NCBI GenBank assembly: GCA_050331735.1
Contig: JBHJGN010000018.1
Location: 1 to 64,000, forward strand
DNA length: 64,000 nucleotides
Reading direction: 5' to 3'
Origin: Cyanophyceae cyanobacterium
GTDB lineage: Bacteria; Cyanobacteriota; Cyanobacteriia; Cyanobacteriales; JBHJGN01
Made by a program: the position numbers and the translations under genes. This document shows, in pieces, positions 12,565 to 53,192 of this stretch. Numbering within the stretch: position 1 is the first letter of the stretch; each line of letters starts with the position of its first letter. Below the pieces are notes generated by a model, which saw nothing but the letters and a program-made list of their open reading frames with translations, did no database searches and was not told the DNA's origin.

Positions 12565-14577
12565 GTGATGAAAGAACTGCTTTATTTAGAAATTCCCACT
12601 GCCGATACTGCAACGGTTCGTACCTGGCTTCAGCAGGAGTGGCAGCCTCAGCGCGGACACAAACGGGTGACTCCTGACGGCGTGTGTTTACAGTGTTCAA
12701 CACCGGCCCTAATCCCCGCAGAACTTGCTATTTTCGTCTGGTCGCTCCAGCGGACAACCTATCTCAAAGTGTTTCAGTGGGATCCCTTTGCTGGCAGTAG
12801 CAAAATCTGTCGGCAGTTAGAGACGGCGCTGAGAGCACGTTTTCCGCAGCAGTACCCAAAACCGCCGAATATTGACTCCCAGCAGTCGATCTTTGACGCC
12901 CTAGCTCCCTACTACCCCCAAACGGTCCACTTTTTCCAGAAAATGCCGCAGGGGGAGTACGATCTTAGGCGCGTCTACTGGTGGGAAAAGCGCTGGCGGG
13001 AAAGTGTACGTCAGCCCAAACAGCCCAAGCCGGTAATTTTTCAAGACCCATCTCGGGCAACAACTCCTCTGAACTACGACATTATCTATATTGGCGGTGC
13101 TTTAGGCGCCATCCATGCAGCGGTCATGGCCCAGCGAGGCTACCGTGTTTTGCTCGTGGAGCGGCTTCCTTTTGGGCGGATGAATCGGGAGTGGAATATT
13201 TCCCGTTCGGAATTTCAAAGCCTAATTGATTTAGGATTGTTTACCGAGGCTGAATTTGAAAGCATCATTGCTAGGGAGTATATCGACGGATACAACAAGT
13301 TCTTTGATGGCACAATTCCGGAAAACCTCAGAGCCGATGTGCTGCATACGCCAACGGTACTCAATATTGCTCTAAATTCCCAAAAATTCTTAGAGCTGTG
13401 TGGCACTAAGCTCAGGCAGGCTGGGGGTGAAATCTGGGACGAAACTGAGTTTATTCGCGCTCATGTTGCTCCCGAGCAAGTCAGTGTTGAACTGGTCCAC
13501 CTCCCGACACAAACAACCAAACGGGTGAGCGGACGATTACTGCTCGATGCGATGGGAACGGCATCACCAATTGCCTGGCAGCTTAATGGCGGTCGAGCTT
13601 TTGATAGCGTTTGTCCAACGGTGGGAGCGGTAATTCAGAGTGGCTTTGAGCCCGGAGTTTGGGACTCTAACTATGGCGATGTCCTCAATTCTCACGGCGA
13701 TATTTCCAGAGGAAGACAGTTGATTTGGGAGCTGTTTCCGGGGGAAGGAGAAGAACTCACTATCTATCTGTTCCACTACCATCAGGTGCATCCCGATAAC
13801 CCCGGCTCTTTATTAGAAATGTATGAAGATTTCTTTACAATTCTACCGGAGTACCGCCGCTGCGATGTGGAACAGCTCGTCTGGAAGAAACCCACCTTTG
13901 GGTACATTCCCGGGCACTTTAGCACGAGTCAAAGCGATCGCACGGTAGCTTTCGATCGTCTACTCGCGATTGGAGATGCGGCGTCTCTTCAGTCGCCGCT
14001 CGTCTTTACCGGATTTGGTTCCTTGGTGCGAAACCTCAATCGCCTAACGAATCTACTAGATACGGCGCTACAGCACGATCTCCTGGAGGCGAAACACCTC
14101 AACCAAATCCGCGCCTACCAAAGCAATGTCTCGGTCACCTGGCTCTTTTCTAAGGGCATGATGGTGCCTACGGGGAAAACTTTAGCGCCGCAGAAAATTA
14201 ATGCGATGCTGAACACCTTTTTCGGACTGCTGGCCGATGAACCGCTAGAAGTTGCCGATACCTTTATTAAAGATCGTGCTAACTGGATGATGTTCACGCA
14301 TCTGGCCCTTAAAGCTGCTCGTAAAAATCCGGCTATCTTGCTGTGGATTGTCGAAATGGCGGGTGTAAAAGATCTAGTGCGCTGGACAGGTTCGTATCTA
14401 GTATTCACCGTGGATGCGTTTACTAACTGGCTGTTGAAACGCTGGTTTCCCCAGTGGCTGCGGCAGTCTCAAACGTGGCTAGAGAAATATCCGGCTTTAT
14501 GGCTGAAGCTGTTGAGTGTTCGGTATGGACTCACGATTAATTTACCTCGAATTTCGAGTAAAAAGGTGACGGGGTGA
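12565..14577 (+). CDS. cruA: Lycopene cyclase CruA (FAD-dependent)
   Basis: YIGGALG FAD motif, GRMNREWNISR, CPTVG, GDAASLQSPLVFTGFGS; N-terminal extension and ~670-aa length fit CruA rather than CruP. Confidence 0.85.
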   Translation: MMKELLYLEIPTADTATVRTWLQQEWQPQRGHKRVTPDGVCLQCSTPALIPAELAIFVWSLQRTTYLKVFQWDPFAGSSKICRQLETALRARFPQQYPKPPNIDSQQSIFDALAPYYPQTVHFFQKMPQGEYDLRRVYWWEKRWRESVRQPKQPKPVIFQDPSRATTPLNYDIIYIGGALGAIHAAVMAQRGYRVLLVERLPFGRMNREWNISRSEFQSLIDLGLFTEAEFESIIAREYIDGYNKFFDGTIPENLRADVLHTPTVLNIALNSQKFLELCGTKLRQAGGEIWDETEFIRAHVAPEQVSVELVHLPTQTTKRVSGRLLLDAMGTASPIAWQLNGGRAFDSVCPTVGAVIQSGFEPGVWDSNYGDVLNSHGDISRGRQLIWELFPGEGEELTIYLFHYHQVHPDNPGSLLEMYEDFFTILPEYRRCDVEQLVWKKPTFGYIPGHFSTSQSDRTVAFDRLLAIGDAASLQSPLVFTGFGSLVRNLNRLTNLLDTALQHDLLEAKHLNQIRAYQSNVSVTWLFSKGMMVPTGKTLAPQKINAMLNTFFGLLADEPLEVADTFIKDRANWMMFTHLALKAARKNPAILLWIVEMAGVKDLVRWTGSYLVFTVDAFTNWLLKRWFPQWLRQSQTWLEKYPALWLKLLSVRYGLTINLPRISSKKVTG

Positions 14578-49458: not shown

Positions 49459-49619
49459 AGAATAGCAATCCTCTCTCAATCCGCTTGATTTTACACTGTA
49501 GCAGAGTAACTTGTTTGCCTATAGTAATCTAAAACAGGGGTAATTCTAGATACTGCTCCCTTGACAATCCCTTAGATTAGGTAAAAGCCTGGGGTGAACG
49601 GAACCAAACGGGATTTGAG

Positions 49620-50600
49620 ATGACGTTACGAGCATTTGTGACCGGAGGAACGGGTTTCATTGGTGCTAATTTGGTACGAAGGCTCTTGCGCCAGGGATAT
49701 GCGGTTCGTACCCTGGTTCGTTCTACCAGTCGTCTTGATAATCTTCAGTCTTTAGAGACAGATATCGTTACCGGAGACGTTAACGACCCAGAACTGTCTC
49801 GGCAAATCCGGGGATGCCAGGTGCTCTTTCACGTTGCCGCTCAGTATTCTCTCTGGCAAGCGGATCGCAAAGCTGTTTATATTAACAACGTTCAGGGAAC
49901 TCGTAACGTACTCGCGGCAGCTCGTCGGGCTGGCATCGAGCGCACTATTTATACCAGTTCCGTCGCAGCCATTGGCGTTAGCTCCGGTATAGCGGTTGAT
50001 GAAACGTATCAAAGTGCCCTCGCTGATTTGGTCGGTGATTACAAAAAGTCTAAATATTTGGCAGAGCAGGAGGCCAAAGCAGCCGTGGCTTTGGGTCAAG
50101 ATGTCGTGATTGTCAACCCGAGCACCCCCATCGGTCCTTGGGATCTTAAACCAACCCCGACAGGCGCTATTATTTTGCGCTTTCTGCGACGGGAGATGCC
50201 AGTGTATGTCAATACTGGGCTTAACCTGATTGACGTGCGTGACGTGGCTCAAGGCCATCTGCTGGCGCTAGAGCGGGGCCAAACGGGAGAACGCTATATT
50301 CTAGGCCACCAGAATTTAACCCTCAAAGCACTCCTCGACCAGCTCGCGCCCATGACTGGAATGACGGCGCCTCGATACTCGGTTCCCAGATGGATTCCGC
50401 TGAGTGTGGCCTGGATAGAGGAGCAAATCTTGGCTCCCTGGGGAAAACAGCCGACTGTGCCCGTAGACGGCGTACGCATGTCGCGGCAGGTGATGTACTA
50501 CGATGCGTCTAAAGCCGTCCGAGAGTTAGGTTTGCCTCAATCTCCGATTCCGGTTGCCCTTAAGGATGCTGTAGAGTGGTTTCGGCGCCACAGCCGATGA
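49620..50600 (+). CDS. hpnA: Hopanoid-associated sugar epimerase (NAD-dependent)
   Basis: TGGTGFIG, FHVAAQYSLW, YTSSVA, YKKSK, VNPSTPIGPWDLKPTPTG. Confidence 0.88.
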   Translation: MTLRAFVTGGTGFIGANLVRRLLRQGYAVRTLVRSTSRLDNLQSLETDIVTGDVNDPELSRQIRGCQVLFHVAAQYSLWQADRKAVYINNVQGTRNVLAAARRAGIERTIYTSSVAAIGVSSGIAVDETYQSALADLVGDYKKSKYLAEQEAKAAVALGQDVVIVNPSTPIGPWDLKPTPTGAIILRFLRREMPVYVNTGLNLIDVRDVAQGHLLALERGQTGERYILGHQNLTLKALLDQLAPMTGMTAPRYSVPRWIPLSVAWIEEQILAPWGKQPTVPVDGVRMSRQVMYYDASKAVRELGLPQSPIPVALKDAVEWFRRHSR

Positions 50601-50641
50601 TCGCCTCCGCCCTCTGAATTATTTCTCTAGCTCAGGGAGAC

Positions 50642-50683
50642 GTAGTATTAGTCACAATTTTCTCTATCTATTGTCTGTAGGAT
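50642..50683 (+). promoter_or_regulatory. Putative NtcA-activated (class II) promoter
   Basis: GTA-N8-CAC (50642-50655; consensus GTA-N8-TAC), exactly 22 nt, then -10 TAGGAT (50678-50683). Confidence 0.68.
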
Positions 50684-50781
50684 AACGGTATTTTCGACGT
50701 CGTTTGACGCTTGCCGCCGACTTGATTGCTAGAGATTGATGACAACGCCCACCAGCCGTAGCTTTCGCCCATCCCTTGTTT

Positions 50782-51507
50782 ATGACCTTCGTTAAATCGC
50801 CGCTGATCGGTCTCACTACCTACTCCCAAGCACAAACGGGAAGATTTTACGTGCCTGGACTATACGTGGAAGCAGTCCACCAAGCTGGAGGAACACCGTT
50901 GTTGCTACCGCCTGTTCCTACCGATCCTACCTGGTTGCTGACACCGCTGGATGGCTTGGTTTTGATTGGTGGAGGCGATATCGATCCTCAGTTTTATCGC
51001 GGAGCCTTTCATCCGTCTGTATACAATGTCGATCCCCGACGGGATCAGTTTGAGCTGGAGCTCGTACAGACAGCCCTAGAACATCAAATTCCTCTGCTGG
51101 GGATCTGCCGAGGACTAGAAATTATTGTCGTTGCTGAAGGAGGCGACCTCATTCCTCACGTTCCCGAACACTCTACCACCGTCGTTCATCGGACAGAAGC
51201 TTCACCATCGGCTCAACACGCGGTAGAGATTGTCCCGTCTAGTCAACTCGCTCAAGTGATGGGAGTAACGGCCACAACCGTTGTTTCTATTCATCATCAA
51301 GCCACGCAAACTGTTCCGCCGAGGTGGCGCGCTGTGGCTCGGGCTGAAGATGGGATCATTGAAGCCCTCGAACATGAGTCTCACCCCTTTGCCCTCGCCG
51401 TGCAGTGGCACCCAGAACTGTCCCTCGACAATCTGGCCCATTTACAGCTTTTCCAGGGATTAGTTCAGGCTGCTCAAGGTTCTTGCCCTAAAAAGCAAGC
51501 CGCCTGA
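50782..51507 (+). CDS. Gamma-glutamyl-GABA hydrolase family (peptidase C26, PuuD-like)
   Basis: LDGLVLIGGGDIDP, RDQFE, LGICRG nucleophile, SIHHQA, AVQWHPE. Confidence 0.9.
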   Translation: MTFVKSPLIGLTTYSQAQTGRFYVPGLYVEAVHQAGGTPLLLPPVPTDPTWLLTPLDGLVLIGGGDIDPQFYRGAFHPSVYNVDPRRDQFELELVQTALEHQIPLLGICRGLEIIVVAEGGDLIPHVPEHSTTVVHRTEASPSAQHAVEIVPSSQLAQVMGVTATTVVSIHHQATQTVPPRWRAVARAEDGIIEALEHESHPFALAVQWHPELSLDNLAHLQLFQGLVQAAQGSCPKKQAA

Positions 51508-51544
51508 TCGAAGAGCGGCTTGCTCCAGGTCAGCGTGACACTAC

Positions 51545-51708
51545 CAAAGAGCGTCGCAGTGCTCCGCCTATACCGCGCAGCGCTCACCTGGCTGCCGGAG
51601 GTGTAGCGGCGGGATACGCCGTGGTAATGCTTAGCGAGGGGTTAAGGGTCTCCCTAGCGACCGAAGAATCTCCTCTCTGTACCCGTCGGGTCAGAGGGGG
51701 AGCATCAA
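51545..51708 (+). mobile_element. Non-autonomous IS200/IS605-family miniature element (PATE-like) with omega-RNA-like interior
   Basis: Target CTAC before left end; guide AGTG then CTCCG..CGGAG hairpin. Right-end guide GAAT, hairpin CTCCTCTCTG..CAGAGGGGGAG, terminal TCAA. Confidence 0.82.
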
Positions 51709-51767
51709 AAACCCGTTCTTTTGTCATAAGCTAAAAGGGCGATGTTTAACCAAACTCAAGGAAAACC

Positions 51768-53192
51768 GTGCAGTTAGCTGACTACGATCTAGCAGATTTC
51801 TATGATGAGTACTTTGTCGCCCCTGGAAAATCTCGACCGGAAGTGGCGGCGATCGCTCGATGGTTGCAGACGTTATCTCCTCAAGAATTAGTGCGTCATG
51901 AAGAGGCGGCTCAACAAACATTAACAGAGCTGGGCGCAACTTTTATTGTCGATGGAACCAAAAGAACGCTCCCCTTTGATATCTTGCCGAGAGTGATCGC
52001 AGCTTCTGAATGGCAGCAGCTTCAGCTCGGCCTGAAACAGCGAGTTAAGGCTCTCAATTCTTTCTGTGCCGATATCTACGGCGAACAGCGTATCCTTCGG
52101 GACGGTAAAGTTCCCAGAGAAATCATTGAGTCCGCAACGGGTTTTCTCCCCAACTGTCGAGGAATGAAACCGCCTCGGGGAATTTGGTGTCACGTCAGCG
52201 GGATCGACCTCGTTCGCAATCAGGAGGGACAGTGGTATGTGTTAGAAGATAACCTGCGCGTTCCTTCTGGGGTAGCCTATGCGCTTAAAAATCGTCAGGT
52301 TCTTCAGAGTACTTTGCCACAGCTTGTCGAGCAATTTACCCTAGAACCGGTTGAGTACTATGCCCAACAACTGCTTCAGTCTCTTCTCAATTCTGCTCCT
52401 GCTGGCATTAGCGAGCCGACAATGGCGGTGCTGTCGCCAGGACCACAAGAAACAGCTTATTTCGAGCACGCTTTTTTGGCTGAGTCGATCGGCATCGCTT
52501 TAGTAGAGCCCGAGGATTTGACGATTGCAGATGGATATCTACATAGATTGACGGCGGATGGTCCGCAACGCATAGATATTATTTATCGGCGAGGAGATGT
52601 TGATTTACTGGATGCTCTGCACTTGGGCGACCAATATGCTTCCGGGTCTTCGGCATTAATTGAGCTTTGTCAACAGGGACGGCTGACCCTCGCTAACGCG
52701 ATGGGAACGGGAGTCGCCGATGATAAAGTGGTCTATGCCTACGTTCCCGAAATCATTCGCTATTACCTCGGAGAAGAGCCGCGTCTGCCCAACGTACCTA
52801 CCTATCTGTGCTGGCAGTCTGAAGACCGCAACTATGTGCTAGAACACCTCGATCAGTTAGTGGTCAAATCAGCTAGCGAATACGGTGGCAGCGGCATGCT
52901 TGTTGGTCCGAGCGCCAGTCAAGCGGAACGAGACTCGTTTGCCGACAAGATCCGCTCCCAGCCTCGTAACTACATAGCGCAGCCAACGCTCTCTTTATCT
53001 AGAATCCCAACGGTCGTTGACGGTCGTTTAGAAGGACGACACGTTGATTTAAGGCCCTACGTCGTCAGTCGAGCCGAAGATATTTATGTTTATCCAGGAG
53101 GCTTGACGCGGGTTGCCCTAGAAAAAGGGTCTTTAGTCGTCAATTCTTCTCGAGGCGGCGGCACTAAAGATACTTGGGTGCTAGCTGAATAA
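51768..53192 (+). CDS. Circularly permuted type 2 ATP-grasp protein
   Basis: FYDEY, LPFDILPR, GIDLVR, VLEDNLRVPSG, AYFEHAFLA, GVADDK, RHVDLRPY, GGLTRVAL, VVNSSRGGGTKDTWV. Confidence 0.93.
   Translation: MQLADYDLADFYDEYFVAPGKSRPEVAAIARWLQTLSPQELVRHEEAAQQTLTELGATFIVDGTKRTLPFDILPRVIAASEWQQLQLGLKQRVKALNSFCADIYGEQRILRDGKVPREIIESATGFLPNCRGMKPPRGIWCHVSGIDLVRNQEGQWYVLEDNLRVPSGVAYALKNRQVLQSTLPQLVEQFTLEPVEYYAQQLLQSLLNSAPAGISEPTMAVLSPGPQETAYFEHAFLAESIGIALVEPEDLTIADGYLHRLTADGPQRIDIIYRRGDVDLLDALHLGDQYASGSSALIELCQQGRLTLANAMGTGVADDKVVYAYVPEIIRYYLGEEPRLPNVPTYLCWQSEDRNYVLEHLDQLVVKSASEYGGSGMLVGPSASQAERDSFADKIRSQPRNYIAQPTLSLSRIPTVVDGRLEGRHVDLRPYVVSRAEDIYVYPGGLTRVALEKGSLVVNSSRGGGTKDTWVLAE

Follow-up and report, generated by a model that had tools for sequence, protein, structure and literature searches.

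The DNA analysed here is a 64-kb window, positions 1 to 64,000 of contig JBHJGN010000018.1 from the metagenome-assembled genome of a Cyanophyceae cyanobacterium (GCA_050331735.1), and all coordinates refer to it. Within this window, a gene for an amidotransferase of the Peptidase_C26/GATase type (50776-51507, + strand, E 1e-58) is followed by a gene for a circularly permuted ATP-grasp protein (CP_ATPgrasp_2, 51768-53192, + strand, E 9e-149), and the 260-bp spacer between them holds an IS200/IS605-type mini-element of 164 bp (51545-51708, + strand), which is in sense orientation with both genes and lies 60 nt upstream of the ATP-grasp start codon. A 9-bp GC-rich stem (GCAAGCCGC...GCGGCTTGC) with no T-run extends over the peptidase-C26 stop codon at 51491-51527, 17 nt upstream of the element. 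No protein is encoded by the element itself; the sole open reading frame of at least 40 aa that overlaps it is a 47-aa frame on the minus strand. A preliminary description of this locus had called it a protein-less IS200/IS605 mini-element, and this is correct: all of the sequence strings it listed are in place, both end types are present without a reading frame of their own, and homologous full-length elements exist in other genomes. That 51545-51708 is a deletion derivative of the IS605 family is practically certain.

CTAC and TCAA delimit the element. The target tetranucleotide CTAC (51541-51544, + strand), which constitutes the left cleavage site C_L and would act as TAM for the TnpB of the family, stands directly 5' of the first base, as expected for the tetranucleotide insertion, with neither target duplication nor terminal inverted repeats, that characterises IS200/IS605 elements. 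TCAA (51705-51708, + strand), the right cleavage site C_R, forms the final bases and terminates all 17 aligned relatives, whose flanks diverge immediately beyond it. Because two copies in a relative's genome (G011) are common only from CCTAC to TCAA, the boundaries of the element are fixed. The left-end remnant (51545-51611, + strand), recognised from the left ends of the family and from DNA folding, starts with CAAAGAGCGTCGC (51545-51557) and consists of the CGCAGTGCTCCGCCTATA motif followed by a disrupted subterminal hairpin; the left guide G_L, AGTG (51558-51561), is invariant in the family motif and sits 5' of the hairpin foot, where CTCCG (51562-51566) and CGGAG (51596-51600) are found. 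At the opposite end, the right guide G_R, GAAT (51666-51669), belongs to an AAGAATC shared without change by all 17 aligned copies, and it is followed by the subterminal hairpin CTCCTCTCTG...CAGAGGGGGAG (51670-51702, + strand), which is seen in the DNA fold and supported by covariation.

The two pairs of guides and cleavage sites can be judged against IS608 of Helicobacter pylori. In the accessible text on that element, the right-end pairs are C-3/G-35 and T-4/A-34, and the left end is described, by analogy, as pairing T-4 and T-3 with A+16 and A+17 (He et al. 2011, PMC3201880). These pairs place position 2 of the cleavage site opposite guide position 1 and position 1 opposite guide position 2, and the letters of IS608 suggest that position 4 would pair with guide position 4. 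AGTG, which had been assigned to CTAC on this scheme, indeed fits the rule with the pairs T-A, C-G and C-G, and GAAT and TCAA are letter for letter those of the IS608 right end. As far as the accessible text allows the comparison, both elements also place a guide tetranucleotide 5' of the hairpin foot and follow the same positional rule, TTAC/AAAG in IS608 corresponding to CTAC/AGTG here. They differ, within the same text, in the left cleavage site itself (CTAC in our element), in the distance from C_L to G_L (13 nt, as against 19 nt between TTAC and the foot of the hairpin in IS608), in the distance from the right hairpin to TCAA (2 nt versus 10 nt), and in their hairpin sequences, which are unrelated. 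By eye, a further TnpB family with the C-terminal motif MLGEGL (L030, L048, L052, L057, L050, L049, L044) combines TTAC with AAAG and CTAC with AGAG, a co-variation of target and guide such as the IS608 rule predicts. As a by-product, the tetranucleotide pairs of these families are thus consistent with the guide and cleavage rule in the published IS608 text.

In spite of the correct guide letters, the earlier view that both ends look functional is not supported, given that the hairpin of the left end appears degraded. Its DNA fold has a z of +0.30 and is equalled by 127 of 200 shuffles, whereas the left ends of a partial copy on contig C15 of the same genome (z -2.58) and of the copy at locus L059 (z -3.56) each form a defined hairpin, and the right-end hairpin of the element (z -2.18) is intact. 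The left end retains the motif and AGTG, diverges from the family consensus after ...TATACCGCG, and contains about 12 bases (CACCTGGCTGCC) in excess of that consensus. The hairpin that remains is not the canonical one of the family.

The interior is, as had been supposed, the 3' tail of a tnpB gene together with its omega-RNA scaffold (51599-51708, + strand). We built a covariance model, R1 (103 positions, 26 pairs), from 15 tnpB 3' ends of other genomes with the window excluded, and on searching both strands of the 64 kb it gave a single match, at 51599-51708, covering model positions 1-103 of 103 with 61.8 bits (E 1.3e-13), far more than chance would give. On the same scale, the training members score 107-126 bits, a truncated copy (L035) 83.2 bits, a full-length element discussed below (L123) 63.9 bits, and all remaining matches at most 24.3 bits. 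As the scaffold matches R1 over its full length and scores like L123, it is not badly degraded. With 51597-51712 as the query, matches were found in 17 of 401 genomes of the same order, our own genome counted; in full-length copies, the aligned stretch includes codons of the TnpB C-terminus (...MQRGLAAVGxTVKMLGEGLSVGSP...) and reaches ...GAGTGTCAA, after which the flanks diverge. The scaffold thus has the layout of a TnpB omega-RNA, which overlaps the 3' end of tnpB, ends at the right boundary and takes its guide from the flank. From position only, the 16 nt of AAACCCGTTCTTTTGT (51709-51724, + strand) would serve as the guide, provided that the scaffold is expressed and loaded. An Rfam scan of 51000-52300 returned chance-level matches only, none of them on the element.

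The fold of the scaffold is documented by its relatives. For 17 copies, RNAalifold predicts 26 pairs, nine of which show compensatory changes, in a structure composed of stem 1, stem 2 with an apical extension, and stem 3, identical with the hairpin of the right end. When 27 copies were aligned by fitting them to the model, a procedure that biases the counts towards structure, both-side changes occurred in 21 of 30 pairs and 92.6% of cells were paired as against 74.6% in shuffles, while sliding the partners by one to three columns reduced the pairing to 40-52%. Stem 1 (GCGGCG-GGATA-CGCCGT, 51606-51622, + strand) is intact and has compensatory changes in relatives, and stem 3 has both-side changes in six of its eight pairs. 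ATGCT (51627-51631) and AGCAT (51701-51705) had been taken for a pseudoknot, a label that we reject because the pairing encloses stems 2 and 3: it is nested and closes a three-way junction in the minimum-free-energy folds of the window, L190 and L123 alike. The four pairs of this closing helix, ATGC/GCAT, are formed in 80.2% of cells across the 27 copies and vary on one side only (G-U to G-C, U-G to U-A or C-G), never on both. Two lesions set the present scaffold apart from that of L190. In stem 2 (CTTAG, 51630-51634, with CGAAG, 51662-51666, + strand), A51633 and G51663 are mismatched, the G standing for a T in L190 and disrupting a position paired as A-U in L190 and L123 and as G-C in the MLGEGL family; the apical loop is shortened as well, as a 3-nt gap relative to L190 removes a small apical helix. 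Judged from its sequence, the scaffold could conceivably still be active with a compatible TnpB. As a by-product, R1 provides a covariance-supported three-stem omega-RNA model for a cyanobacterial TnpB lineage. Locus L035 (G014:C3, 1479-1555, minus strand) is a second truncated copy or a right-end-only remnant: its scaffold begins at ...CGATGCTTGG, has no stem 1, and is preceded by unrelated sequence.

Elements with the same left end that do encode proteins occur in other genomes, where the left ends of tnpA/tnpB elements are 80-86% identical to that of the window over 32-41 nt. Since the first matches of the left end and of the scaffold lay in different sets of genomes, and since the MLGEGL family has another left end, both ends had to be sought on a single element. 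Two such elements were found outside our genome, both carrying tnpB only. L123 (CAVRCJ010000005.1, an uncultured cyanobacterium MAG) consists of CTAC, the left end, a 394-aa TnpB and a scaffold ending in ...GAGCGTCAA. It has a total length of about 1.37 kb and agrees with the window at 33 of 41 positions of the left end and 88 of 117 of the right part. L190 (JGI12048J13642_10168874, a metagenome contig of 1361 nt) starts partway into a left end of this type and has ...GAGCATCAA as its terminal sequence. Its TnpB, of 398 aa, shares 88% identity with the L123 protein. The contig matches the window at 91 of 116 positions overall and, over 51627-51708, at 73 of 82 plus the 3-nt gap. Both share with our element the left-end type, the right-end hairpin type, the ...GAGC(A/G)TCAA end and the three-stem scaffold, with 75-78% identity over the last 112-117 nt. 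The difference lies in between, where they have the 394-398-aa TnpB and a spacer from the left end to tnpB, and the window element lacks about 1.2 kb of interior. A chimera of two unrelated IS families, which we had considered, was rejected as L123 and L190 bear both end types on one element. Promoter scans of the spacers between left end and tnpB found no site in either L190 or L123.

In its own genome (5.57 Mb in 99 contigs, 99.98% complete) the element is alone. BLAST with a 172-nt query returned the element itself, one partial match at C15:8120-8164 (84% identity, query 1-44, E 5.5e-6) and four chance matches of 15-25 nt with E of at least 0.8, and a more sensitive blastn search added no sibling copy either, the C15 fragment being the one further trace in this genome. 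We found no second copy in the 99 contigs that would indicate multi-copy mobilisation, and a joint left-end-to-scaffold pattern had no match in the genome contigs of one genome per species. Next to the C15 left end, a Y1 transposase gene (C15:7776-8069) runs in the opposite direction and covers only profile positions 26-121 of 121; beyond it lies a TnpB N-terminal fragment (C15:7495-7713), which shares 70% identity with residues 1-73 of a relative's TnpB. The partial tnpA and the tnpB fragment mark this as the broken remains of an element in which a reversed tnpA and then tnpB followed the left end. Extending over C15:7393-8164, this broken sibling of the parent element is preceded by CTAT instead of CTAC, has a well-folding left hairpin, and borders on an ABC-transporter gene.

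These data bear on whether the 164 bp might still be mobile as a PATE, with a Y1 TnpA from another locus of the genome, for instance that of an element on contig C16, excising and reinserting it. Both pairs of guides and cleavage sites are intact and fit the rule in the IS608 text, as is the right-end hairpin, and among the eight Y1_Tnp matches of the genome, the one on C16 shares 60% identity with a TnpA from a relative whose left end is of this type. Moreover, short derivatives with this left end do occur: independent mini-elements of 124, 248, 367, 369 and 450 bp were found at five other loci (the regular expression used is certain to have overlooked others), and one of about 420 bp with the ...GAGCGTCAA end lies at approximately 131-553 of locus L040 (G030:C1:315600-318600), between reading frames whose translations resemble kaiC and kaiB by eye. 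However, there is one copy only in this genome, no copy of the same architecture was found in the scan of one genome per species, and the left-end hairpin needed for TnpA binding looks disrupted. An intact matching TnpA was not found in the genome either: the sole tnpA adjoining a matching left end, on C15, is truncated, and the left end of the C16 element has, by eye, a different hairpin sequence and a CCAC target. We therefore regard continuing mobility as improbable, and the element shows no sign of having moved as a mini-element; it may rather have arisen by deletion within a full-length copy at its present site.

A PATE in the descriptive sense it nevertheless is, with both ends and no protein gene. 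Such palindrome-associated transposable elements, protein-less derivatives of IS200/IS605, were reportedly first named in Haloquadratum walsbyi. They have been found in Geobacillus stearothermophilus, where, in the accessible text, both ends are kept, there is no open reading frame, and an omega-RNA region lies beside the right end (Meers et al. 2023, PMC10055086). The window element has the same organisation and differs from what that text describes in being single-copy, in its damaged left-end hairpin, and in having no matching TnpA or TnpB in its genome. The use of PATE-encoded omega-RNAs in trans is in print as well (Meers et al. 2023, PMC10055086; Altae-Tran et al. 2023, PMC10691335), and the accessible part of the latter summarises earlier work on standalone omega-RNAs that share their genomes with effector loci and act in trans (Altae-Tran et al. 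2021). Our scaffold resembles the stand-alone OMEGA RNAs of that summary in having no adjacent effector and drawing its guide from the flank; those, however, co-occur with compatible effectors and were shown to act in trans, while ours is predicted from sequence and no compatible effector was found. The proposal that a PATE of this kind may be a stand-alone guide-RNA gene for a TnpB encoded elsewhere is therefore sound as a type and, going by these texts, already published.

For this locus, such a gene would have its scaffold transcribed by read-through from the upstream operon and loaded by a TnpB in trans, which would then cut CTAC-AAACCCGTTCTTTTGT, the empty donor site. The full-length R1 match, the intact stems 1 and 3 and closing helix, the sense orientation with both neighbours, the lack of any terminator-like site between 50400 and 52000 in a simple scan, and the published trans use of PATE omega-RNAs in the texts cited above all speak for it, as do the 13 TnpB zinc-ribbon family matches of the genome, 12 of them above the cut-off, with about eight other tnpB frames of at least 400 aa still open. 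None of these is of the matching lineage. The TnpB nearest to that of L190 is encoded on C81 with 48-53% identity and is interrupted, and the next, on C61, has 33%. The C81 gene (C81:13393-15948) is 68-73% identical to the TnpB of the G011 element and is split at 13947/15151 by a 1.2-kb insertion with an IS630-like transposase reading frame on the opposite strand; its own ends, CTAT|CGAAGAACC... on the left and ...GAGTATGTCAA on the right, are present. Across the whole genome, R1 scores beyond the window reach only 22.7, 21.8 and 16.8 bits, at the 3' ends of tnpB genes on C74, C15 (46.5 kb) and C87, and the TnpB elements on C55, C74, C87 and C15 (46.5 kb) have only the terminal module, GAATC-hairpin-GAG..TCAA, in common with the window. 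A TnpB with a matching omega-RNA was thus not found in this 99.98%-complete assembly of 99 contigs, in which, given the number of contigs and several tnpB genes at contig ends, a repeated cognate element could be unassembled.

Further points tell against a guide-RNA gene. One stem-2 pair is broken and the apical helix is lost; the A/T-rich stretch that the parents have between left end and tnpB is deleted; no promoter-like site was found by a simple scan of the + strand from 50400 to 51708; and the damaged left end means that the targeted donor joint would rarely form. There is no other target for the guide in the genome, AAACCCGTTCTTTTGT having no further site at 0-1 mismatch and four sites at two mismatches, none of which follows CTAC. 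The earlier proposal that guide production could be nitrogen-regulated placed the element in a putative NtcA-driven transcript. We found one GTAN8TAC match, at 49540, before an epimerase gene (49620-50600), 2 kb and two genes upstream of the element, which is not evidence of NtcA control. Taken together, a guide-RNA gene in which read-through transcripts are loaded by a TnpB in trans is unlikely, and we would put the chance of a working trans guide, as judged from sequence, about as low.

The same scaffold could have been kept, once the left end had decayed, for a different reason, namely because TnpBs of sibling elements in the mat community load it when they enter the cell. In low-depth contigs of stromatolite metagenome runs (X1-X3, of which X1 may be the source of this DNA) we found a sibling of the left end with another flank (51541-51582, five differences) and a sibling of the tnpB tail and right end, again with another flank (51605-51709, 11 differences, three gaps), and these siblings imply that related full-length elements and a compatible TnpB are present in the community. 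If such an immobilised guide-RNA gene existed, it would represent a fixed guide expressed by read-through, and one under nitrogen control if the upstream NtcA-like site were real. We consider this even less probable than continuing mobility.

The position of the element just upstream of the ATP-grasp gene also raises the question of whether its GC-rich hairpins have been co-opted in cis, modulating read-through or stability of the transcript into that gene. The element is in sense, 60 nt from the start codon, and strong hairpins are present; but a simple scan of 50400-52000 detected no terminator-like site, the RNA fold of 51597-51728 is ordinary for its composition (z -1.39), and nothing requires such a reading. 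Nor is there conservation to lean on. The ATP-grasp gene has matches of up to 62% identity in 22 of 41 genomes, our own included, and the peptidase-C26 gene was absent from the flanks of the ATP-grasp gene in 13 of 13 relative loci examined. Regulation in cis is accordingly the least likely of the alternatives considered. With a gene pair that is not syntenic at any of these 13 loci, no empty-site comparison is possible. A joined-flank pattern for the empty allele had no match in metagenome contigs, and no joint across the element was seen in X1-X3, which says nothing either way, since assembled contigs drop rare variants.

We conclude that the element is probably a single-copy relic of a deletion in place, slowly decaying, that neither moves nor guides anything. 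In the scenario we favour, a full-length IS605/IS1341-type element of about 1.4 kb, of the L123/L190 lineage and with the parental order of left end, tnpB with overlapping omega-RNA, and right end, would have inserted 3' of CTAC in what is now the 260-bp spacer. A deletion would then have removed about 1.2 kb, with its endpoints in a short stretch of the left end and a similar one close to the tnpB 3' terminus. This would have joined some 65 nt of left end to roughly the final 105 nt, in which the omega-RNA scaffold and the right end are contained. The stretch 51597-51622 (+ strand) resembles both the L190 left-end segment GGTGGTGAAGCGGCG... (20 of 26 positions) and the L190 tnpB 3' segment GGAATTGCAGCCGTGGGAT..., from which we infer that the deletion took place between them and that its junction falls within this zone. 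Decay would have followed, damaging the left-end hairpin and introducing the two structural lesions of the scaffold. Comparison with L123 and L190 thus identifies the 164 bp as an internal-deletion derivative of a TnpB-bearing element of their lineage, and its present state makes inactivity the probable outcome. It is a decaying, PATE-like relic and one further case of a type already published. Its importance beyond annotation is slight, adding another gene-less IS605 derivative with an omega-RNA scaffold, from a cyanobacterial MAG, though it does show how such a derivative would originate by internal deletion between similar short stretches.

A by-product of this work is a CTAC-targeting left-end motif common to IS605-type elements of several phyla. 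Scanning one genome per species for CGCAGTGCTCCGCCYATA returned at least 121 stretches; those among the matches listed are mostly from cyanobacteria, the rest from Ectothiorhodospiraceae, other Gammaproteobacteria and further phyla. The loci examined among the matches listed numbered 80, with 83 occurrences of the motif, 79 of them unique. In 68 of these 79 the motif is preceded by CTAC at a distance of exactly 10 nt, in agreement with the assignment of CTAC as target and TAM. The other 11, again among the matches listed, comprise two copies in which CTAC is shifted by one base, three with the variants CCAC, CTAA and TCAC, and six without the rest of the left end, which are chance matches by eye. 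The same left end is found with different gene contents: at L039 it is followed by reversed tnpA, tnpB and the right end, in G051 by reversed tnpA and then tnpB, and at two sites in G011 it stands 5' of tnpB. Exact 18-nt copies of the motif occur in cyanobacteria, Halorhodospira, Ectothiorhodospira, Thioalkalivibrio, Arhodomonas and other MAGs (loci L058-L137), which suggests that one IS605 lineage has spread widely by horizontal transfer, often among organisms of salt lakes or mats. Two of the loci are of unusual build. L070 (OY970368.1) has a tandem left end with its motifs 80 nt apart, the second after CTAA, followed by reversed tnpA and tnpB, and at approximately 2590-2660 of L116 (JAAUOZ010000011.1) a left end is fused within about 60 bp to a right end running into ...GGGGGGAGAGTGTCAA, with TCAC 5' of the element.
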